The notes: a model not told the origin generated them from the letters alone. DNA of 64,000 bases from an uncultured Caldilineales bacterium (GCA_964460135.1 CAYWPZ010000001.1:7469-71468), one strand, 5' to 3'. Counted from the first letter of the stretch, positions 4,615 to 62,979 are shown. Translations and numbers: made by a program.

Positions 4615-5568
4615 ATGCCCACGCTCTCCGTTCTTATCCCGGCCCACAACGAGGCCGAAAACATCCACGAGCTTGTCGCTCGCACGGCCCAGGCCTTCGC
4701 CGCCCTGGAGGTGGCGGGCGAATTGGTGTTGGTGGACGACGGCAGCACGGACGGGACCGCCGAGCAGGTAGAAACACTTCAAGCCGGTCACCCCTGGTTG
4801 CGGCTGATCCGCCACCGCCGCAACCGGGGTCTCACCGCCGCCCTGCGCTCTGGCTTCCGCGCTGCCCAGGGCGATTACATCCTCTTCCTCCCCGCCGACC
4901 TGGAATCGGACCCGGCCGAGGATGTGCCCAAGCTCTACCACAAACTCCTGGAAGGCTACGACGTGGTTTCGGGCTGGCGACAGGGCCGCGACGATGGCAA
5001 ACAACTGGCTTCCGGCATCTACAACGTTGTCAGCCGGCGTCTGTTCGCGGTGCGCGTCCACGACGCCAACTGGATCAAGGGCTTTCGCCGTGAGGTCATC
5101 GCCGCCCTGCCGCCCTTGCGCTCGGACTGGCACCGCTTCCTGCTTCACATCGCCGCCGACCAGGGCTTTCGGGTGGGAGAGACGCCCACGAACTGGTATC
5201 CGCGCAGGGCCGGGCGCACGCATTTTGGCTTCAGCCGCATCCCCATCTCGCTGCTCGATGTCATCGTCATCCGCTTCTTGCTCACCTTCAGCTCGCGGCC
5301 CATGCGTTTCTTTGGCGGCCTCGGCCTGAGCTCCTTCGCCATCGCCGCTTTCACCACCCTCTTCCTTGCCTACCTCTGGTTCTTCCAGGAACAGACGCAG
5401 AAACGGCCGGTCTTCTGGGCCGCCCTCTTCCTGGCCCTGGCCGGGCTGCTGTTCTTCCTCGTCGGCTTCCTGGCCGAACTCATCGTCGCCCAGGGCGACC
5501 GCCTGAGCGAGTTGGAAGAACGGTTGGCAGAGGTGGATCGGGAGACAGGGGGACGGGGAGACAGGTAG
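4615..5568 (+). CDS. GT2 family polyprenol-phosphate glycosyltransferase (GtrB/ArnC/DPM1-like) with C-terminal TM helices
   Basis: N-terminus LSVLIPAHNEAENI, then a VDDGSTDGT DxD-region, plus two C-terminal hydrophobic helices. Confidence 0.85.
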   Translation: MPTLSVLIPAHNEAENIHELVARTAQAFAALEVAGELVLVDDGSTDGTAEQVETLQAGHPWLRLIRHRRNRGLTAALRSGFRAAQGDYILFLPADLESDPAEDVPKLYHKLLEGYDVVSGWRQGRDDGKQLASGIYNVVSRRLFAVRVHDANWIKGFRREVIAALPPLRSDWHRFLLHIAADQGFRVGETPTNWYPRRAGRTHFGFSRIPISLLDVIVIRFLLTFSSRPMRFFGGLGLSSFAIAAFTTLFLAYLWFFQEQTQKRPVFWAALFLALAGLLFFLVGFLAELIVAQGDRLSELEERLAEVDRETGGRGDR

Positions 5569-5606
5569 ACCGGGAGACCAGTTGCCACTTGCCACCCGCC
5601 ACCCCC

Positions 5607-6959: not shown

Positions 6960-8537
6960 CTATCTCGCCAGCATCACATCCACCGTCGCCAACAGCGTTG
7001 TGCTGTCGGCGGCCGGATTGAAGCTGTAGATGGCAATGCGGCCGGGGCGAGCTGTGCGGGGTTTGCGCAGGCCGAACTTCACCTGCCACTTGCCCTCGGA
7101 GGCCGCCTCATCCGCACTGACGCGGCTGCGCGCCTGCCCCAGCACCGTCCCCGCCAGATCCTCGACCCGCACCAGGATGGTCTCGTCCTTCATCCCCAGC
7201 GCCGTGCCGCTCACCTGCACCGAGCCTCTGAGCGTCGTCCCCGGCGCCGGCGATGCGACGACGACGACCTTGCCCGCGCTTGGCCCGGCCAGGGCCACAT
7301 TCACCCAGGTCAGCAGGGCCAGGCTGCCGTCGGCCGGATTCTCGCTATAGACGGCCACCCGGCCGGGTGCAGCCGTTGGCGGGTCCTGGAAGGGAAGCTC
7401 GACGGCGAAACCGCCCTTTGCGCCCATTTCGGCGGCGTCGATGACCACTGCCACCGCGCCCATAACCTCCCCGGCCTCGGTCTCGACCCGCACGATCACT
7501 TTGTTCTCGAACGCGCCCTCGGCCTCGCCCGCCACCTGCACCCTGCCGCTCAGGGCGGTGCGGGGCAGTGGGCTGAAGATCGCACCCGTGGGACCAAAAG
7601 CGCCGGTCGGGGATGCGTTGGCGGCAGGCGAAGGGACGACAGGGGCGGGTTGGGCGGAAGGGGTGGCGGCCGGGTCAGACGTCTCCACGGGCGGGGGATC
7701 GAGCAGATCGATGCGGCGGGCCAACAGACGCCGGCCGTTGTAGTCGGGCGCGGCAAAACGCAGCTCGCCCCAGACGCGCACCCGGCCCTGATAGTCGGTC
7801 AGGCTTTGCAGCAAAGTCAACACTTCGGCCCGGTTGCTATCGATGCCGTGTTGGTTGCCTCCCTCGCCGGCAAAGTAGTCATCGAACGGCATCCCCGGCG
7901 GCAACTTGACGATGCGCCCCACCCAGCCATCGGCCTGCTGCGAGCGCGGGCGCGGCAGCCGGGCCGAGACGACGGTGACGACGATGCCCTCATCGCCCAC
8001 TTCGCCCCACCAACGCGCGTCGTTGCCGGCGTTGGCCAGGACGGCAGGGCTGACCAGGCGACCATCGACCAGATAGGGGGCGCCGACAACGATCTGCCAG
8101 GGGGTAGCGGCAAAGCCGGCCGCCGCCTGCACCAGTTCGGCCTCCAGCTCAACGTCGGCAGGGGCAAAAGCGGCATTGGCTGGCAGATCCAGCCGGTAAG
8201 CGCCCCGCACGTAGTCCAGGGCGAGGTCACGCACGGCCGCGGGGGCGAGGATGCTGGTAGGCAGGGCGGGCGGGGACGGCTCGGTGGGCGGGACAGGGGC
8301 CGGCCCGGTGATGGCCTGGCTGGCCGTGATCGCCTCGCCGCTCTGCACCAGGGGCAGCGTCAGGGTCGAAACCTGGGTGGAGGTGATGCCGACAGGCGTC
8401 GCCGGCTCGGCGGCAGGGGGCAGGGCAGGCGTCTCGGCGGTGGGCGCCGGAGATCCTGCCGGCAGCGAGCCGACGCAGGCGCTTAGCGCCGCCGCCAGCA
8501 ACACAGCCATGAGGCCAAGCAAGAAAGTGCGTCGCAT
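6960..8537 (-). CDS. Secreted lipoprotein with GerMN-like region and two Gmad2-type Ig-like repeats
   Basis: Signal peptide with lipobox MRRTFLLGLMAVLLAAALSAC. Start ATG at 8537 behind GGGAGG. Two repeated ~90-aa modules (..RVAVYSENPADGSLALLTWVNV / ..RIAIYSFNPAADSTTLLATVDV). Confidence 0.6.
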   Translation of the reverse strand: MRRTFLLGLMAVLLAAALSACVGSLPAGSPAPTAETPALPPAAEPATPVGITSTQVSTLTLPLVQSGEAITASQAITGPAPVPPTEPSPPALPTSILAPAAVRDLALDYVRGAYRLDLPANAAFAPADVELEAELVQAAAGFAATPWQIVVGAPYLVDGRLVSPAVLANAGNDARWWGEVGDEGIVVTVVSARLPRPRSQQADGWVGRIVKLPPGMPFDDYFAGEGGNQHGIDSNRAEVLTLLQSLTDYQGRVRVWGELRFAAPDYNGRRLLARRIDLLDPPPVETSDPAATPSAQPAPVVPSPAANASPTGAFGPTGAIFSPLPRTALSGRVQVAGEAEGAFENKVIVRVETEAGEVMGAVAVVIDAAEMGAKGGFAVELPFQDPPTAAPGRVAVYSENPADGSLALLTWVNVALAGPSAGKVVVVASPAPGTTLRGSVQVSGTALGMKDETILVRVEDLAGTVLGQARSRVSADEAASEGKWQVKFGLRKPRTARPGRIAIYSFNPAADSTTLLATVDVMLAR

Positions 8538-8566
8538 CGTCCGTCCACCGCCTCCCGGTTGCTCCT

Positions 8567-9715
8567 TCATTTAGGGCTCATCGGCATGATCACATGCACG
8601 TACTCTTCCTCGCCCGCCCCCACCGGCCGGATCACGCCCGGACGCGAGGCCGAGATGACCTCGAAGACGACTTCGGGCGTCTCGACGACCGCCAGGACAT
8701 CGATCATGAACTTGGCGTTGAAGGCCGCCTGCACCGATTCGCCCTCCACCAGGGCATCGACTTCGGCTTCGTTGTCGCCCATCTCGCTGCTGGTGGCCGT
8801 GAGGACGATCTTGCCCGGATCGCCGGGAACGATGCTGAGGCGGACGATGTTGGCGGCGTCGCGGGCAAAGAGATACGACAAGCGCATGGCCTTGAGAAAC
8901 TCGGCCGTGTTGACGACGACACGGGTGTTGTAGGAGGTGGGGACGATCTTGTTGTAGTCGGGGAAATTGGCCTCGATCAATTGGCTGACCAGATCGACGC
9001 CAGGCAGATGGAACATGATCTGGTTGCGCGCTTCGGTGATCGTCACCTGCACGCCATCGTCCTCGCCCAAGTCGACGGCGCCGAGGATGCGCGAAAGCTC
9101 GGTCAAGGCCCGCGCCGGCACGATCACCCCCACGGCCGCCGGCGCTGGTTCTTCCAGAAGGGTGGAGCGCACGGCCAGCCGGAAACCATCGGTGGCCACC
9201 AGCCGCAGTCTTTCACCATCCAGTCGGGTGTAGACGCCGGTCAGGGTGGGGCGGCTTTCGTCGCTGGCGGCGGCAAAGGCCACCTGGTCGATCATGCGCC
9301 GAAACTTGTCCGGCGGCAATTCGGTGGCCGGCAGGCCGGTCTCGCGGCGATGGGTGGGGATGATCGGGAACTCGGAGGCGTCGATACCTTTGATGTTGGC
9401 CTCGTTGCGGGCGCAGCGCAGGTGCAGCGTCTGGGTGCGCACATTCAATTCCATATCGATCCGCTCCTTGGGGAGCGACGCAACGAAATCGCTGAGCAAG
9501 CGCGCCGGCACCGTGATCGCACCCTCCTCCTCGATCATCGCCCCGATCCAGCAGTTGATCCCAATCTCCATGTTCATGGCCGAGAGTTTGAGCTGCGATT
9601 GATCGGTTTCGAGCAGAATGTTGCTCAGGACCGGCAAGGTGCTGCGTGTGGCCACGGCGCGGGCAACGATGGCGAGTCCTTTGGCCAAGTTTTCTTGCAA
9701 AACTGAAATGCGCAC
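8567..9715 (-). CDS. dnaN: DNA polymerase III beta subunit (sliding clamp)
   Basis: Full-length DnaN similarity (N-terminus RISVLQENLAKGL.., three-domain length ~382 aa). GTG start at 9715 with GGAGGT 7 nt upstream. Confidence 0.9.
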   Translation of the reverse strand: MRISVLQENLAKGLAIVARAVATRSTLPVLSNILLETDQSQLKLSAMNMEIGINCWIGAMIEEEGAITVPARLLSDFVASLPKERIDMELNVRTQTLHLRCARNEANIKGIDASEFPIIPTHRRETGLPATELPPDKFRRMIDQVAFAAASDESRPTLTGVYTRLDGERLRLVATDGFRLAVRSTLLEEPAPAAVGVIVPARALTELSRILGAVDLGEDDGVQVTITEARNQIMFHLPGVDLVSQLIEANFPDYNKIVPTSYNTRVVVNTAEFLKAMRLSYLFARDAANIVRLSIVPGDPGKIVLTATSSEMGDNEAEVDALVEGESVQAAFNAKFMIDVLAVVETPEVVFEVISASRPGVIRPVGAGEEEYVHVIMPMSPK

Positions 9716-10424
9716 GGAATGACCTCCGAACAAAAACGATGAAGGGGATAAGGAAGCCCGACAAAAGAGAGAATCAGTATACCAAAGCCACGCACAAACC
9801 GGGAAATGGCCGCTGAACTCTTGCGGTGTCATCGGCGTCAGCCAGCCATCGTTCGCACCTGATCAGGCGATGTTAACATCTCCTAACCCTGACCTTAAAA
9901 CCTATGCTCGTTCATTTCTCCTCCGGCAATGGCCTCGGTCGGGCTATTTTGTGCCAGCGCGCCCCGCAGCCACTAATGCTAGGCCCCGTTTGGACGCCCG
10001 CCTTTCGTGCCTGCCTTGTGCTTGACGATAACAAGGGGTGGCTGAGCCAAAGCCTCACGGTGCGAATCATTGCGCCGGGCCGTCCCCTCTGCTATGATCC
10101 CGCCTACGTCCGGTCAGACAAGTGTCTTCGTTCCCTGGCGAAAGAACCGGCCGGCGCAGGCGCACAACCGCTGCGTGCAGGCGTGTTGGCAGCAGCAAGC
10201 GGCAGGCGCCAGTAACAGGCGCCCCCCTCGATTGAACATAATCTGTGGCTACGGCCGAATCCAAACCGATTCAGGCTGCCAGCCGCCGGTCGCGTGTTGC
10301 CTGATCACGGTCGCCATCCTCCCCCACCTTCTCCCGGCCCCCGCCGGACCCTTTCGCCCCCCCTGGCCCACTCATTTTGGAGCGCATCTTTTCGCCTCTC
10401 CAGGCAACCTCAGGACTTGCCATC

Positions 10425-11786
10425 ATGGATCTCTCTCAACGTCCAGAAACCATTTGGCAAGCCGTGTTAGGCGAACTGCAACTTTCTTTGCAACGACCCG
10501 TTTTCGACAACTGGCTGCGCGATACGCAAGCGATTGCCTATGAAGATGGCTGCTTCATCATCGCCGCCAAGAGCGCGTTTGCCCAGGCATGGCTGGAGCA
10601 ACGCATGAAGGGCATGCTCAAGCAACGTTTGCAGCGTCTGTGTGGGCGTTCGGTCGATCTGCGCGTTGTTGTGCGCGCTGACCCTGCGCCCGCGCCCGAC
10701 CAGAACACCGACGAGCCGCCGCTCTTGCAGCCTCAGACCGATGGGGGTCGCTATCGCAGTCCGGCGCCGGTGTCTGCTTCTTCGCTCAACACCGCCATGA
10801 CCTTCGACAGCTTCATCGTCGGCAGCGGCAATCATTTCGCCTATGCCGCGGCCCAGGCTGTCGGTCAGGAACCCGGCAACCGCTACAACCCTCTTTTTCT
10901 CTATGGCGGCGTCGGCCTGGGCAAGACCCACTTGCTTCACGCCATCGGCAACCATGCCGCCCGCGCGGGCTATGCCTCTCGCTATGTCACGGCCGAGACC
11001 TTCACCAACGATCTGATCGAGGCGATACGCACCAAATCGAATGTTGCCTTTCGGCAACAATACCGTGAAGTCGATATCCTCCTCATCGATGATGTCCAGT
11101 TCATCGAAGGCAAACCAAGCACTCAAACCGAAGTCTTTCATACCTTCAACACCCTTTACGCCACCAACAAACAGTTGGTCATCGCCAGCGACCGACCGCC
11201 GCAATCCTTCCCGCAGTTCGACGATCGCTTGCGCTCTCGTTTTGCCGGCGGTCTGACCGTCGACCTGCAGCCGCCCGACCTTGAGCTGCGCGCTGCCATT
11301 CTGCGCGACAAAGCGTTCGGGATGGGTGTGAGCATTGCCGACGATGTCCTTCGCTTCATTGCCGAGCAGAACCGCAGCAACGTGCGCGAATTGCAGGGCG
11401 CCCTCAACCGCGTCGTCGCCTTTGCCCGCCTGGTGCTGCGGCCCATCGATCTCTCGCTGGCGCAAGAAACGCTCAGCGAAAACGATGTCTGTCTCAACCG
11501 CGATCCGCAGTCGGTCTTGCAGGCGGTGGCGAGTGAGTTTCGCGTGGCCCCGGGCGAGCTAACCGGCCCCCGACGCTCATACAACATCGTCGTGCCTCGC
11601 CAGGCGGCGATGTACCTGATGCGCGAGGTCTGCCAGCTCTCCTTCCCCCAGATCGGCGAATTCCTGGGCGGTCGCGACCACACGACCGCCATGCACGGCT
11701 GCGAAAAGATGGCGCAACGATTGGACGAAGACGCCGAGCTCCGCAGTCGCCTCGAACGGGTGCGGATGCGCCTGCGACAATCGTAA
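10425..11786 (+). CDS. dnaA: Chromosomal replication initiator DnaA
   Basis: AAA+ Walker A GGVGLGKTHLLHAIGN, sensor motifs, and a C-terminal DNA-binding domain (..PQIGEFLGGRDHTTAMHGCEKM). ATG at 10425. Confidence 0.95.
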   Translation: MDLSQRPETIWQAVLGELQLSLQRPVFDNWLRDTQAIAYEDGCFIIAAKSAFAQAWLEQRMKGMLKQRLQRLCGRSVDLRVVVRADPAPAPDQNTDEPPLLQPQTDGGRYRSPAPVSASSLNTAMTFDSFIVGSGNHFAYAAAQAVGQEPGNRYNPLFLYGGVGLGKTHLLHAIGNHAARAGYASRYVTAETFTNDLIEAIRTKSNVAFRQQYREVDILLIDDVQFIEGKPSTQTEVFHTFNTLYATNKQLVIASDRPPQSFPQFDDRLRSRFAGGLTVDLQPPDLELRAAILRDKAFGMGVSIADDVLRFIAEQNRSNVRELQGALNRVVAFARLVLRPIDLSLAQETLSENDVCLNRDPQSVLQAVASEFRVAPGELTGPRRSYNIVVPRQAAMYLMREVCQLSFPQIGEFLGGRDHTTAMHGCEKMAQRLDEDAELRSRLERVRMRLRQS

Positions 11787-11811
11787 GGGCTTTCCACGCC
11801 TGAATACAAAG

Positions 11812-11840
11812 GGACAGGCTTGGCGCCTGTCCCCTTTTCG
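11812..11840 (+). terminator. Rho-independent terminator after dnaA
   Basis: 9-bp stem GGGACAGGC / GCCTGTCCC, loop TTGGC, followed by CTTTTC. Confidence 0.7.
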
Positions 11841-11848
11841 CGTCCGGC

Positions 11849-11901
11849 TGTGGAAAACCCGCCCAAAACTGTGGAAAACCCGGCCCAAAAGTGGAAAACC
11901 G
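11849..11901. promoter_or_regulatory. Cluster of three DnaA-box-like 9-mers (TGTGGAAAA = reverse complement of TTTTCCACA) spaced exactly 21 bp apart; candidate oriC element
   Basis: cTGTGGAAAAcc at 11849, cTGTGGAAAAcc at 11870 and aGTGGAAAAcc at 11891. These match the TTWTNCACA DnaA-box consensus with two-helical-turn phasing. Confidence 0.6.
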
Positions 11902-11909
11902 GCCCCTGT

Positions 11910-12551
11910 TCAGCGCCCGGACGCCGCTTTCCCCTGGCTGTAGTAGGCCATGTGCTGAAGTTGGGCCACCGGGTCCACATACTGCACATGGACATTGGCC
12001 GGCGTCGTCAAGGTGATGGGCGCATAATTCAGGATCGAGGAGATGCCCAACCCAATCAGCGCGCTCGCCACCTCTCTGGCCGCAGCCGGGGGCACGGCAA
12101 TGATGGCGATCTCGACGGCCTGCGAGCGCACGACCTGCTCGAGGTCTTCCATGCCGTGAACCCGGAACGCACCCAGCATCGAGCCGATCTTGGCCGGGTC
12201 GTTGTCGAAAACGCCCACGATCTCAAAACCGTTGTCGGCGAAACGATGATAGTGCACCAGCGCGTGCCCCAGATCGCCGGCGCCGACCAACACCATCCGC
12301 CACTCGCGATCGACATTGAGGATTTCAGCCAGCTGCTCGCGCAGGTAGGCGACGTTGTAACCCGTCCCTTGCTTGCCAAACTCGCCGAAATGGGAGAGGT
12401 CTTTGCGAATTTGCGCCGAGCTGATGCCCAGTCTGTCGCCTAACTCCTGTGACGAGGTGATCTGGCGGCCTTCGGCAATGAGATGGTTCAGAACCCGCAA
12501 GTAGATGGGCAAACGTCCAACGACGATGTCGGGAACAACGGGACGGGGCAT
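11910..12551 (-). CDS. rex: Redox-sensing transcriptional repressor Rex
   Basis: N-terminal winged helix ([13 protein letters not shown]) followed by a Rossmann NADH-binding motif VLVGAGDLG. Start taken at the ATG (MPRPVV..), 9 nt inside the GTG given by the ORF track. Confidence 0.88.
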
Positions 12552-12615
12552 TGCATTCACTCCTGGTCAGCGGCGACGCCCAACAGCGTCTCGCACAAGG
12601 TCGACGCCATCAGCA

Positions 12616-12630
12616 CAAAGCTTGTGCTGA
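12616..12630. promoter_or_regulatory. Perfect 15-bp palindrome GCACAAAGCTTGTGC in the rex/yip1 divergent promoter region
   Basis: Seen directly in the sequence. It has TTGTG/CACAA arms like Rex-family operators but a different spacing from the canonical site. Nearby sequence TTGTGAAATATGG..TAGCACAA. Confidence 0.35.
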
Positions 12631-12747
12631 GATTGTGAAATATGGCATAGTTCATCATAGCACAAATGCCGGCTCAGCCCAAACCCAATCTGGTTGCGCA
12701 AGGCCAATGTTGCGCAACCCTCTTGCTTCTCAAACGTACAACGACTT

Positions 12748-13497
12748 ATGACGAACTTCGCCGCCCCCGACCTGCGTCCGCTCAACCCCTTTCATCTTCT
12801 CATCGACATCATCGCCGCCCCCGGCGAAGCCCTGCGCCGCCTGAGCCAGGTGCAGACGCGCAGTTGGTGGCTGCCGGCGCTCCTCTCGCTGCTTGCCGCC
12901 TTTGCCTACCTGGGCGTGACCCTGGAAGAGACAGCCGCCGAGGCCGCCAAACAAGCCCAGGTGCAGATGGGGACGATGTCGGCGGAACAGGCGGCGGCGG
13001 CAGCGTCGATGATCGAGCGCGTCACCTCACCCGCTTTCATCTTCGGCAGCGGCGCCGTCGCCACGGTCCTGGGCCTGCTGATCGCTTGGGGCCTGGCCAG
13101 CCTGGTGCTGTATCTCGGCGCTTCGCTGGCCGGCGGTCAGGTGAAGATCGGCCGCCTCTGGCCGGCCATCGTCTGGATTTGGCTGCCTTTCGCCCTGCGC
13201 GGCTTTTTGCAGACAGCCTGGAGCGCCGCCAATGGCAGCCTCATCCACTACCCCGGCCTGTCTTTCTGGTTCGCCACCGGCGATACAGCCGTCGATCAGA
13301 CGCGCCCCCTGTTCGCCCTGGCCGCCCAGGTCGATTTGTTCAGCCTCTGGCATGTGGCGCTCGTCTATCTGCTTCTCCGCCTGGTGGGGCGGCTGGGCGG
13401 CGGCGGTGCCTTCGCCATCACCCTGGCCTATGTCGTCATCAATCTGGGGGTGCGGCTGCTCCCGGCCCTGGTTGGCGGCGCCTTCAGCCTCGGATGA
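12748..13497 (+). CDS. Yip1-family multi-pass membrane protein
   Basis: Five hydrophobic helices and Yip1-like organisation. ATG at 12748. Confidence 0.6.
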   Translation: MTNFAAPDLRPLNPFHLLIDIIAAPGEALRRLSQVQTRSWWLPALLSLLAAFAYLGVTLEETAAEAAKQAQVQMGTMSAEQAAAAASMIERVTSPAFIFGSGAVATVLGLLIAWGLASLVLYLGASLAGGQVKIGRLWPAIVWIWLPFALRGFLQTAWSAANGSLIHYPGLSFWFATGDTAVDQTRPLFALAAQVDLFSLWHVALVYLLLRLVGRLGGGGAFAITLAYVVINLGVRLLPALVGGAFSLG

Positions 13498-13545
13498 GGC
13501 CGGCCCCGGCTGCTTTGGCGAGATACCGGAAGCCAGATGACATAT

Positions 13546-13582
13546 TTTTGTACATGTTTTGTCGATAATTAAGTTATATTTT
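13546..13582 (+). promoter_or_regulatory. AT-rich promoter-like tract upstream of the efflux operon
   Basis: Locally AT-rich (ttttgtacatgttttgtcgataattaagttatatttt) within a 68% GC background. Contains TTGTAC/TTGTCG -35-like and TATATT -10-like hexamers, but the spacing is ambiguous. Confidence 0.3.
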
Positions 13583-24990: not shown

Positions 24991-25089
24991 AGTTGGTTAT
25001 TGGGTATTGGTAATTAGTTATTGGCAATTGGTAATTGATATTTCGTGTTGAGTATTAGCGATTACGCAAGACGTATTACTCGTCACTCA
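24991..25089. repeat. Heptanucleotide tandem array (~14 units, ATTGGTA-like, decaying toward 25089) that exactly fills the spacer between the small ORF stop and the tpiA start
   Basis: Heptamers TGGTTAT TGGGTAT TGGTAAT TAGTTAT TGGCAAT TGGTAAT TGATATT TCGTGTT GAGTATT AGCGATT ACGCAAG ACGTATT ... Confidence 0.75.
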
Positions 25090-30620: not shown

Positions 30621-31386
30621 CCCGGCCGGCGTTGCCGCTGGCGAGGCGCGGGAAGTAGGTGAGTCCGTCGCCTGCGTAATGCCAGTAGTAGGCGGACAGG
30701 AAGGCGTCGGCGATGCGCCGGTGGCCGAGGTCATTGGGGTGAAAGCCATCGCCATGAAAATCGGGCGGGAAAGGGTTGGGCTGGTCGGGTGAGGAGAGGC
30801 CGTCGGGCCGATCGACCGTGGCCGCCCAGAGGTCGGCCACAGCCAGGCCGCGCGCTTCGGCTTCCTGTCGGATCCAGCCGTTGTAGATATGCGCCCGCGC
30901 CCGGCGTTCTTCATCCCATCCGACCCAGGGCGTGACGCCAACAACGATCTGGGCCTGAGGTGCGAGCTGGCGGAAACGGTCGAGCATGGCGCCGTAGTGG
31001 GCCTGCCATTCGTCTGCGGGCACTTGTTCGCAAGTCGGGCTGGGCAGGATGTCGTTGACGCCCAGTTCGATGAAAAGGATGGTGGGCGGGGGCAATTGTT
31101 CCAGCCGCTCCCAGCGCGCCTCTAGCCGGCCGAGCGTACACATACCCTCCCAAAAGAGCAGGCGGATCTGGCCGGGGCGCTGGTCTTGAAGGCTGGTGAA
31201 GACATGATGGCGGAACATGGCGGCCTCGCTGCTGGCATAGAGGCCGCGGGTGATGCTGTCGCCGATGATCCAGACGGCATTGAGCGGCGGCGGTTCGTCG
31301 GCCTCGATCTGGCAGGCTTGCAGCCCAGCCATCAGGACGAATAAAACCAGGAGTGCATGGAGCCAAAGACGGCGCCGGCGGGGCAT
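30604..31386 (-). CDS. SGNH/GDSL family hydrolase (secreted)
   Basis: Signal peptide, GDSITRG block I, GVND block III and C-terminal DGFHPNDLGH block V. Confidence 0.85.
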   Translation of the reverse strand: MPRRRRLWLHALLVLFVLMAGLQACQIEADEPPPLNAVWIIGDSITRGLYASSEAAMFRHHVFTSLQDQRPGQIRLLFWEGMCTLGRLEARWERLEQLPPPTILFIELGVNDILPSPTCEQVPADEWQAHYGAMLDRFRQLAPQAQIVVGVTPWVGWDEERRARAHIYNGWIRQEAEARGLAVADLWAATVDRPDGLSSPDQPNPFPPDFHGDGFHPNDLGHRRIADAFLSAYYWHYAGDGLTYFPRLASGNAGRVAGAD

Positions 31387-44191: not shown

Positions 44192-44274
44192 TTGGAGATT
44201 GGTTATTGGTTATTGGAGATTGTGTTTTCCCCATCTGTGTCGTTCATTTCGCAATCCGCAATCCGAAACTCGCA
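44191..44274. repeat. 12 consecutive heptamers (ATTGGAG ATTGGTT ATTGGTT ATTGGAG ... CGCAATC-type) spanning exactly from stop codon to start codon
   Basis: 84 nt = 12 x 7. The start codon at 44275 is in phase with the heptamer array. Confidence 0.75.
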
Positions 44275-44906: not shown

Positions 44907-45974
44907 ATGTTCGACAAACTCGACCAGATCGAAGCCAGCTACGACGCCCTCGAAGCCCGGATGGGCGACCCGGCCATTGCCGCCGATTATCAGGAAGCGG
45001 CGAAGTTGGCGCGCGAGCAGGCTGAGCTGCGGGACATCGTCGCCAGCTATCGCCAGCTGAAGCGGGTCATGCAGGAATTGGCCGACGCCCGCCAGCTGTT
45101 GGAGGCCGAGGAGGATGCTGATTTCCGGGCGCTGGCCGAAGCCGAAGTAGGCGCCCTGGAAGCCGAACAGGGGCGCGTCGAGCAGGAGCTGCGGGCTTTG
45201 CTGCTGCCGCGCGACCCGCGCGATGCCAGAAATGTGATCGTCGAAATCCGGGCCGGGACGGGCGGCGACGAAGCCGGGCTGTTTGCAGCCGACCTCTATC
45301 GCATGGTCAACCGCTATGCCGAGAAGCGAAACTGGAAGGCGGCGCTGCTTTCGAGCAGCGAAAGCGGCATTGGCGGCTTCAAGGAAGTGATCTTCGAGGT
45401 GCGCGGGGAGGGCGCCTACAGCCGGTTGAAGTACGAATCGGGGGTTCATCGCGTGCAGCGTGTGCCCGAAACCGAGTCGCAAGGCCGCATCCACACCTCC
45501 ACCGCCACCATGGCCGTGCTGCCCGAGGCCGACGAGGTGGAGGTGAACATCGCCCCTGAAGAGATTCGCATCGATGTTTTTCGCGCTACCGGCCCCGGCG
45601 GCCAGAGTGTGAACACGACCGACAGCGCTGTGCGCATCACCCATCTGCCCACCGGCCTGGTGGTGCAATGTCAGGACGAAAAAAGCCAGCTCCAAAACCG
45701 CCAGCGCGCCCTGACCATCCTGCGCGCCCGGCTGTACGATGCCGAAATGCAGCGCCAGCACGAGGCCATCAGCGCCGACCGGCGGGCGCAGGTCGGCTCG
45801 GCCGAGCGCAGCGAGAAAATCCGCACCTACAACTTCCCCCAAAACCGCGTCACCGACCACCGCGTGGGCGTGAGCATCTACAATCTGCCGGCGGTGTTGG
45901 ATGGCGATCTCGACGTCTTCATCGACGAGTTGGCCGCCGCCGATCAGTCGGCGCGGCTGCAGGTGGGGGAGTAG
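44907..45974 (+). CDS. prfA: Peptide chain release factor 1
   Basis: GGQ motif (GPGGQSVNTT) and RF1-type P-x-T region (RVQRVPETESQGRIHTS). Confidence 0.93.
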   Translation: MFDKLDQIEASYDALEARMGDPAIAADYQEAAKLAREQAELRDIVASYRQLKRVMQELADARQLLEAEEDADFRALAEAEVGALEAEQGRVEQELRALLLPRDPRDARNVIVEIRAGTGGDEAGLFAADLYRMVNRYAEKRNWKAALLSSSESGIGGFKEVIFEVRGEGAYSRLKYESGVHRVQRVPETESQGRIHTSTATMAVLPEADEVEVNIAPEEIRIDVFRATGPGGQSVNTTDSAVRITHLPTGLVVQCQDEKSQLQNRQRALTILRARLYDAEMQRQHEAISADRRAQVGSAERSEKIRTYNFPQNRVTDHRVGVSIYNLPAVLDGDLDVFIDELAAADQSARLQVGE

Positions 45975-46015
45975 GAAGTAGGGAGTATGGAGTATGGAGT
46001 AGGGAGTAGCAGGGA
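45968..46015. repeat. KGGAGTA heptamer x6 spanning the prfA stop and prmC start
   Basis: ggagta ggaagta gggagta tggagta tggagta gggagta, an array of SD-like GGAG units. Confidence 0.7.
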
Positions 46016-48190: not shown

Positions 48191-48224
48191 AGTAACAGTC
48201 AACAATCAACAGTCAACAATCACC
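48191..48224. repeat. RTCAACA heptamer x5 directly abutting the lipoprotein start codon
   Basis: AGTAACA GTCAACA ATCAACA GTCAACA ATCACC|ATG. Confidence 0.7.
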
Positions 48225-51816: not shown

Positions 51817-51858
51817 GTGGCAAGTGGCAGGTGGCAAGTGCCAGGTGTCAAGTAACAC
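51817..51858. repeat. RGTGGCA heptamer x6 immediately after the ydiJ stop
   Basis: GGTGGCA AGTGGCA GGTGGCA AGTGCCA GGTGTCA AGTAACA. The last units form the hairpin CAGGTG..CACCTG. Same family as the array at 62808 and, in reverse complement, 5581-5606. Confidence 0.7.
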
Positions 51859-62807: not shown

Positions 62808-62856
62808 AGTCGCAAGTGGCAGGTCGCAAGTGGCAGGTCGCAGGTGGCAGGTCGCA
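62808..62856. repeat. RGTSGCA heptamer x7 immediately after the permease stop
   Basis: AGTCGCA AGTGGCA GGTCGCA AGTGGCA GGTCGCA GGTGGCA GGTCGCA, followed by a CTTTTCGTT stretch and a distal complementary CCACCTGCCACCC at 62927. Confidence 0.7.
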
Positions 62857-62979
62857 AGCTTGTCCTTTTCGTTGCCCGCAAGTCAGGCTCTGAGTGAAAC
62901 GGAGGATCGCCGATCAAAAACAACTTTCCACCTGCCACCCTTTTCTCTCTCACCCGTTCCCTTGAAGGAGGAACAAAAA

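Follow-up and report, generated by a model that had tools for sequence, protein, structure and literature searches.

In Escherichia coli, datA and DARS1/2 are small clusters of consensus DnaA boxes that lie outside the unwinding region and modulate the availability of DnaA; the cores of DARS contain closely packed, oppositely oriented boxes, and datA an IHF site together with a defined set of boxes. A DnaA-trio is the sequence 3′-GAT-5′, i.e., CTA on the TTATCCACA strand, and the box that goes with it is usually a tandem pair. Here we compare these and other systems with a triplet of DnaA boxes found just downstream of dnaA in a stretch of 64,000 nt (ca. 65% G+C), referred to below as the window, from an uncultured Caldilineales bacterium (Chloroflexota). 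In the basal unwinding system, a box is accompanied by at least three DnaA-trios within 16 bp (PMC8287927). The distal incC boxes of Bacillus subtilis work over distances of 132–462 bp, irrespective of their orientation but subject to helical phasing; the boxes beside dnaA loop the DNA and raise the amount of DnaA at boxes 6/7 and at the DnaA-trios (PMC6669920). According to PMC3245932, clusters of boxes outside the origin also modulate DnaA availability in this species. For Helicobacter pylori, PMC3479198 describes a high-affinity cluster on one side of dnaA, where no unwinding takes place, and an unwinding element on the other. Our literature searches returned no experimentally mapped origin from Chloroflexota and nothing specific on DnaA boxes phased at 21 bp. 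The triplet of the window is a known kind of element; in this Caldilineales locus, the accessory array is kept and the unwinding unit has gone from its usual place. We favour the reading, with a probability of about 0.55, that it binds DnaA and serves as an accessory, DnaA-recruiting arm of an origin that is unwound at some other site near dnaA.

The three boxes stand in the 123-bp gap (11787–11909) between the convergent genes dnaA and rex. The initial annotation had described them as three TGTGGAAAA 9-mers at an exact 21-bp spacing behind the dnaA terminator, and most of this description holds: there is a terminator hairpin at 11806–11838, the boxes begin at 11849, and those at 11849 and 11870 are indeed TGTGGAAAA. 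The third, however, is AGTGGAAAA at 11890, within which the GTGGAAAA core begins at 11891, and the start-to-start distances are 21 and then 20 bp. All three are co-oriented, with intervening gaps of 12 and 11 bp, and another 11 bp separate the end of box 3 from the rex stop codon; Tandem Repeats Finder reports the tract at 11848–11905 as 2.8 copies of a 21-bp period. Read on the opposite strand, two copies of TTTTCCACA and one of TTTTCCACT fall within 50 bp and fit the DnaA-box consensus TTWTNCACA. Of the four copies of the GTGGAWAA core in the 64 kb, three belong to the triplet. Composition-preserving shuffles (n = 3000) contained it 1.46 times on average, with two copies within 60 bp in three shuffles and three copies in none, so the cluster is far beyond chance. 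A position-weight matrix made from the orthologous boxes and applied to the whole window found no strong box outside the triplet except an isolated 14-bit match at 44223. A second cluster suspected near 21.9–22.7 kb was discarded; it comprises three one-mismatch matches in or beside long open reading frames (ORFs), scoring at most 10 bits. An inverted partial box, CTTTCCACG (11790–11798), is also present four bases past the dnaA stop codon; it matches TTTTCCACA at 7 of 9 positions, runs opposite to the triplet and is not kept in relatives.

The cognate protein points in the same direction. Domain IV of the DnaA encoded in the window keeps the PRQ and GGRDHTT..H motifs when aligned to E. coli 1J1V, a complex of domain IV with DNA, and to B. 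subtilis 8BTG; being canonical, it should read ordinary boxes. With a cluster beyond chance, a canonical domain IV and the conservation described below, the identification of the 9-mers as DnaA boxes is well founded, and we predict with high confidence that the triplet is a functional DnaA-binding array.

The triplet belongs to a module present in 11 of 12 relatives (L021 has none) whose DnaA proteins are 89% down to 49% identical to that of the window. It consists of the dnaA stop codon, usually a terminator hairpin, about ten bases, and the boxes TGTGGAWAA, TGKGGAWAA, and TGKGGAWAA, which in the relatives lie always on the dnaA coding strand and 6–160 bp past the stop codon; almost nothing else in the intergenic DNA downstream of dnaA can be aligned. 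The 21/20-bp spacing is shared by the window, L014, L015, L016, L017, L019, L020, L142, and the distant L009, the variants being 22/20 (L018) and 22/21 (L143, with two good boxes and a degenerate third). In many relatives the weaker site is box 2 or box 3, often as TGGGGAWAA. The gene that comes after the module varies, being rex (minus strand), an LTD/PLD gene (minus strand), a phasin gene (plus strand, L142), or a minus-strand ORF (L009). Because the module is kept whatever gene follows, it is under selection, and because the following gene varies, it is to be assigned to the 3′ end of dnaA rather than to rex.

The same comparison bears on the idea that the repeats are not DnaA sites at all, i.e., that they arose by chance or represent either a Rex operator or an RNA element of the rex 3′ untranslated region. 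Rex half-sites (TTGTGAA) are loosely similar to TGTGGAA, and the boxes would be transcribed at the end of rex. However, a Rex operator is an inverted repeat, TTGTGAA-N-TTCACAA, near a Rex-regulated promoter, whereas the copies here are in direct orientation and located where rex ends, and Rex-type palindromes sit in the spacer between rex and Yip1 instead. The module also occurs without rex in L009, L020, L142, L143, and many metagenome loci, the minus-strand RNA fold contains the terminator only (z = −1.7), and, as mentioned above, no shuffle in 3000 gave such a cluster. We rejected the Rex operator, and the explanation as a whole is hardly credible.

To place the module in a broader context, metagenome contigs were scanned with the pattern TGTGGAWAA-N10-14-TGKGGAWAA-N9-13-WGKGGAWAA, which was found in at least 120 stretches. 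The survey counts given here and below are among the matches listed, which are not phylogenetically independent and whose taxonomy is inferred from DnaA similarity alone. The spacing was 21/21 or 21/20 in 44 of 90 matches (first 80 loci), with 25 combinations allowed by the pattern. Two-helical-turn spacing is thus a real preference, which supports the helical-face phasing proposed earlier. The 43 distinct 21/20 modules have the consensus C-TGTGGATAA-CT..WWWWC-TGTGGATAA-N11-TGKGGATAA-CT. In most lineages the gap between boxes 1 and 2 ends in AAAAC or TTTTC, i.e., in an A/T run with a C behind it, and no comparable run is found in the gap between boxes 2 and 3 of these modules. One of these two boxes often takes the weaker form TGGGGAWAA; this asymmetry of the gaps and boxes suggests a bend or a low-affinity site.

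Where at least 450 bp were available on the 3′ side, 14 of 30 modules had an unwinding unit on the same strand, 179–380 bp away. Each such unit combines tandem TTWTCCMCA boxes with a short GC spacer and a series of CTA triplets, and in the cases that were looked at AT-rich DNA comes next. As controls, the opposite strand had no unit and the left side had one in 26, the background frequency being 0.006 per 600 bp. The detector is strict and misses degenerate, GC-rich versions; two further units were seen by eye (L070 and L073). Among the modules with room on the 5′ side, 8 of 25 follow the 3′ end of dnaA, the corresponding DnaA proteins being 44–50% identical to that of the window and 50–60% to those of named Anaerolineae genomes. 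Triplets are also found in classical dnaA–origin–dnaN loci (L078, L080, L087, and L029). The fixed distance and orientation to the unwinding unit identify the triplet as the dnaA-proximal, distal box array of an oriC, and that of the window is the same array with which oriC begins, immediately after dnaA, in Anaerolineae relatives and in numerous bacteria besides. Some arrays with a 21-bp period, as triplets or longer, also appear without a nearby dnaA (L043, L083, L055, and others among L022–L101). L043 contains six boxes in or beside ORFs whose translations look phage-like by eye, and regularly spaced DnaA boxes may be carried on mobile elements as well.

The window has no such unwinding unit: a box-trio-AT module was detected nowhere in the 64 kb by strict or relaxed scans of either strand, and the same scans recover units in many control loci. 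Applied to L001–L021, they likewise gave nothing credible. There is no run of DnaA-trios beside the triplet nor on the 5′ side of TGTGGAAAA, which is taken up by the GC-rich terminator hairpin. The 3′ flank is rex coding sequence, and the position at which the unit would be expected (~12,080–12,280) falls within this gene. The 123-bp gap has no AT-rich stretch, its least stable 41-mer ranking 6075th of 63,960. Several other places were considered and rejected. A trio-like run at 30691 (minus strand) has no adjoining box and lies in GC-rich DNA resembling coding sequence. The least stable 41-mer of the whole window (13542–13582, ATATTTTTGTACATGTTTTGTCGATAATTAAGTTATATTTT) is located in the spacer between Yip1 and yknX, before a yknX-ABC-FtsX operon, and holds a one-mismatch box, TGTCGATAA; as an unwinding element it was set aside, the spacer of the relatives measuring 39–443 bp with unrelated sequence, and this AT-rich site is probably a promoter. 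The rex–Yip1 spacer contains Rex-type palindromes and no boxes, and was discarded as an origin too.

With no trios, no adjacent AT-rich DNA, and no canonical module in the window, the triplet is not an oriC core. The initial annotation had taken it for a candidate core, left at the old dnaA–dnaN spacer by a local inversion that flipped dnaN. It is true that oriC commonly lies between dnaA and dnaN and that such loci hold triplets, as in the four classical loci mentioned above, but the gap contains hairpin and boxes only, with no trios on the side of TGTGGAAAA where they are required. The arrangement of dnaN speaks against this history too. The gene does lie on the minus strand, divergent from dnaA and exactly 709 bp upstream (spacer 9716–10424), as had been stated. 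When synteny was compared with relatives, a check that the initial annotation had itself put forward, the same orientation was found in eight of them, with spacers of 590–970 bp: L014 (DnaA 89% identical to that of the window), L015 (76%), L016 (71%), L018 (66%), L019 (65%), L021 and L142 (61%), and L143 (60%). Other genes occupy the upstream position in L017 (66%) and L020 (63%), where the divergent dnaN layout is absent, and in eleven more distant Anaerolineae genomes (DnaA 46–49%) neither dnaN nor rex was found within 6 kb of dnaA. A layout common to eight relatives indicates that divergent dnaN is ancestral to a broad clade. The arrangement is old and not a recent local inversion, although an ancient rearrangement of dnaN is conceivable, and an oriC core produced by inversion is very improbable. 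Most of the eleven distant genomes have an opposite-strand gene with a dnaK-like N-terminus (read by eye) upstream of dnaA. In L001–L011, the palindrome CCCCATATATAGGGG, with variants, lies between dnaA and the divergent dnaK-like gene; it is unrelated to DnaA boxes and may be a heat-shock or other operator.

Compared with the described systems, the locus parallels the incC part of oriC in B. subtilis (boxes 1–3, downstream of dnaA) in that the array starts right after dnaA, and Anaerolineae-like loci also resemble B. subtilis, where boxes 6/7, DnaA-trios, and AT-rich DNA form the basal unwinding system, in carrying a box-trio-AT unit, here ~180–380 bp further on and in fixed orientation. Unlike B. 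subtilis, the window has no unwinding unit but rex after the array, dnaN is upstream and divergent rather than downstream, and there are no boxes upstream of dnaA that could be equivalent to incA or incB. Neither the exact 21/20 spacing nor the A/T run that precedes box 2 can be attributed to B. subtilis. The box consensus is that of the basal unwinding system of Pelliciari et al. (2021), and the triplet adjoins such units in other genomes; however, a box adjoining at least three trios within 16 bp (PMC8287927) was found neither at the triplet nor anywhere else in the window. The likeness to the bipartite oriC of H. pylori, with oriC1 upstream and oriC2 downstream of dnaA, is that the box cluster and the proposed unwinding site flank dnaA. 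The sides are swapped, though, and both sub-origins of H. pylori have boxes whereas the 709-bp spacer of the window has none; searches by consensus and by position-weight matrix did not find clusters on both sides of dnaA, as a bipartite oriC has.

With the canonical unwinding module absent and rex in its place, the partner unwinding site would have to lie elsewhere. In the reading that we favour, the conserved triplet would be a high-affinity array for three DnaA molecules, each bound via domain IV to the same face of the helix at intervals of two turns (21 and 20 bp). The array would concentrate DnaA and, most likely, by analogy with B. subtilis incC, deliver it by DNA looping to the unwinding site, opening no DNA itself. 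The preferred partner would be the 709-bp spacer between dnaN and dnaA, 1.4–2.1 kb away across dnaA, which would make this a split origin. The spacer had been described as lacking strong boxes and this was confirmed, with no position-weight-matrix match of 11 bits or more and no TGTGGAWAA at up to one mismatch. It has four conserved blocks (9892–10032) whose positions vary little or not at all in alignment A1, made of nine spacers, including those of L017 and L020, which have no dnaN upstream and keep the blocks as well. The least stable 41-mer of the spacer (9869–9909) ranks 136th of 63,960 in the window. On the minus strand, a TTATCGTCA-like block is followed by the CTA/TAG-rich block, AT-rich DNA, and dnaN. 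Speculatively, this order mimics a decayed box-trio-AT unit, although it fails the definition. TTATCGTCA was rejected as a degenerate box, since it matches at 7 of 9 positions, its CACA core is not conserved, and it stands 30–40 bp from the CTA-rich block where at most 16 bp are allowed; as sigma-70 promoters or degenerate DnaA boxes, blocks B, C, and D were not convincing either. The specific version in which the duplex opens at a non-canonical site of the spacer, with neither boxes nor trios, and DnaA is delivered wholly by looping across dnaA, we consider improbable.

Several observations weigh against an accessory arm with its partner near dnaA. Outside the triplet, neither the 709-bp spacer nor the remainder of the 64 kb yielded a box, a trio run or a canonical unwinding module, and an automatic scan detected no unwinding module within ~5–6 kb of dnaA in L014–L021 (for L142 and L143, the check was made by position-weight matrix and eye alone). 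The case for the spacer as a putative partner consists solely of its conserved blocks and a modest AT-richness. Moreover, ACCTTAAAA, the TAGCC..GTAGG element, and the promoter are also present upstream of dnaA in Anaerolineae that have no triplet, and the blocks may simply be regulatory DNA of the dnaA promoter. The GC skew flips repeatedly along the window (e.g., near 7, 9, 18, 33, 41, and 57 kb), 64 kb being too short for this measure, and lends no support. Finally, 16 of the 30 metagenome triplets also have no detectable unwinding module, and orphan triplets may be common, with another role.

This last point leads to the main alternative, a possible, though less likely, explanation, namely that the triplet is an orphan regulatory cluster, acting by titration or sequestration of DnaA, as the B. 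subtilis clusters or E. coli datA do, or as a roadblock between dnaA and rex transcription, and that oriC is elsewhere in the chromosome. The 10 kb on the left and the 52 kb on the right contain no unwinding module, the upstream spacer is free of boxes, and several of the metagenome triplets without a nearby module are not beside dnaA. The boxes directly follow a probably bidirectional terminator. For B. subtilis, PMC3245932 reports six DnaA-box clusters outside oriC whose deletion leads to early initiation. Against an orphan cluster stands the tie of the module to the 3′ end of dnaA, whatever the next gene and its direction (the phasin gene of L142 is co-directional). In other loci the same 21/20 module forms the distal edge of oriC and keeps a fixed distance to the unwinding unit, and replication genes are found near the locus in relatives (gyrB in L016 and L019; dnaB and a SMC_N/AAA_23-domain protein in L021). 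The arrangement is unlike that of DARS and datA, as the three boxes are co-oriented, two turns apart, and tied to the 3′ end of dnaA; neither box arrangement was found at the triplet, although the IHF consensus was not searched for systematically.

The coordinates of the features are collected in Table 1. The dnaN start is a GTG at 9715 with GGAGG just upstream; a longer ORF reaching 9832 was rejected as an over-extension, the identical metagenome contig L012 having a 382-aa gene call. The closest named DnaA proteins, at 63–65% identity, come from Caldilineales metagenome-assembled genomes. In the terminator, the stem (11811–11819/11825–11833) is followed by a T-run (11835–11838), and the hairpin was seen in the RNA folds of both strands; it probably serves both dnaA and rex, i.e., it is bidirectional. 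Its stem sequence, GGGACAGG/CCTGTCCC, is kept in L014, L015, L017, and L018. A generic promoter and terminator scan listed neither this hairpin nor the dnaA promoter candidate. An Rfam scan of 9600–12000 returned nothing besides a sub-threshold match (30.3 bits vs. a gathering threshold of 52) to AsdA, the Salmonella antisense RNA of dnaA mRNA, at 10902–10968 on the minus strand. The match, which overlies the part of dnaA that encodes Walker A, was discarded; conservation of the coding sequence is its most likely cause.

Table 1. Position of the DnaA-box triplet, genes, and regulatory candidates in the 64,000-nt Caldilineales window.
Feature	Position	Strand	Description
DnaA box 1	11849–11857	plus	TGTGGAAAA (TTTTCCACA on opposite strand); position-weight matrix 20.5–21.0 bits; ortholog in 11/12 relatives
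DnaA box 2	11870–11878	plus	TGTGGAAAA, 21 bp after box 1; A-run (AAAAC) just 5′
DnaA box 3	11890–11898	plus	AGTGGAAAA, 20 bp after box 2; weakest, position-weight matrix 13.7–14.4 bits
Hairpin terminator	11806–11838	both	ACAAA-GGGACAGGC-TTGGC-GCCTGTCCC-CTTTT; A-run before, T-run after
Gmad2-domain protein gene	6960–8570	minus	Pfam
dnaN (DNA polymerase III beta clamp), 382 aa	8567–9715	minus	Pfam DNA_pol3_beta N, central, and C domains
dnaA, 453 aa	10425 (ATG)–11786	plus	Pfam DnaA_N, Bac_DnaA, Bac_DnaA_C
rex (redox-sensing repressor)	11910–12560	minus, convergent with dnaA	Pfam Put_DNA-bind_N and CoA_binding; synteny in L014–L019
Yip1-family gene	12694–13497	plus	Pfam
Extended −10-like element TGGTATACT	9776–9784	minus	AGTATACCA or AGTATAACA in 7/7 relatives with dnaN upstream
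Conserved block ACCTTAAAA	9892–9900	plus	AT-richest part of spacer; alignment A1
Conserved block GCTATTTTGT	9943–9952	plus	Alignment A1; GCTATYTTGT across relatives
Conserved block CCACTAATGCTAGG	9970–9983	plus	Partial palindrome, CTA/TAG-rich (CTACTA..CTAG); alignment A1
Conserved block CTTGTGCTTGACGATAAC	10015–10032	plus	Alignment A1; also as TTGTGCTTGACGATAAG
dnaA promoter candidate	10070–10098	plus	TTGCGC-17-TGCTATGAT (TATGAT; preceding TGC, extended −10)

Apart from the conserved blocks, the 709-bp spacer holds candidate signals for both of the genes that flank it. The extended −10-like element TGGTATACT is a probable dnaN promoter, judging from its sequence and its recurrence in relatives. 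The candidate at 10070–10098 is a probable dnaA promoter; it lies ~330 nt upstream of the start codon, takes the form TTGCA/G-17-TGCTATNAT in alignment A1, and resembles an element of Anaerolineae loci, TTGCA-17-TGCTAGAAT or TGTAAAAT. Within the ~330-nt untranslated leader, just upstream of the dnaA ribosome-binding site, there is a C-rich polypyrimidine tract (10313–10375), also present in L015, L016, L019, and L020 with its composition kept and its sequence not; it might sequester the Shine-Dalgarno sequence or act at the DNA level.

Other repeats and mobile elements were observed away from the triplet. The Rex-operator-type palindromes between the divergent genes rex and Yip1 (~12615–12665; TTGTGC..GCACAA and TTGTGAAAT..TTCATCA) are also found in L015, L016, L018, and L019, and their sequences suggest Rex autoregulation. 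Short tandem arrays of 4–7 copies, with 7-nt units and one 8-nt unit (TTGGTAA, GGGAGTA, AACAATC, GTGGCAA, GTCGCAG, and CGGGAGAC), occupy positions 24993–25037, 45967–46009, 48194–48222, 51817–51853, 62809–62858, and 5539–5579. They recall the heptamer repeats of cyanobacteria, and a CCCTACT-type run exists in the rex–Yip1 spacer of L015. L017 carries an IS200/IS605 pair (Y1 transposase and TnpB) near the locus (1–641), and three tandem copies of CGTCATAATGTCGTGCTAA in its Yip1–yknX spacer (9400–9460).

The triplet provides a cheap and reliable landmark for the neighbourhood of the origin in metagenome-assembled genomes of Anaerolineae and Caldilineales. The survey reveals a specific 21/20 module that is widespread, at a fixed distance from and orientation to the box-trio unwinding unit, and this agrees with a view based on genetic work in B. 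subtilis, in which the basal unwinding system has distal boxes as its standard accessory. As a natural experiment, the Caldilineales locus bears on how widely the accessory and the unwinding unit can be separated. If the duplex does open in the spacer, with DnaA delivered across dnaA, these bacteria would have uncoupled the two halves of the origin, and duplex opening would be independent of an adjacent box.

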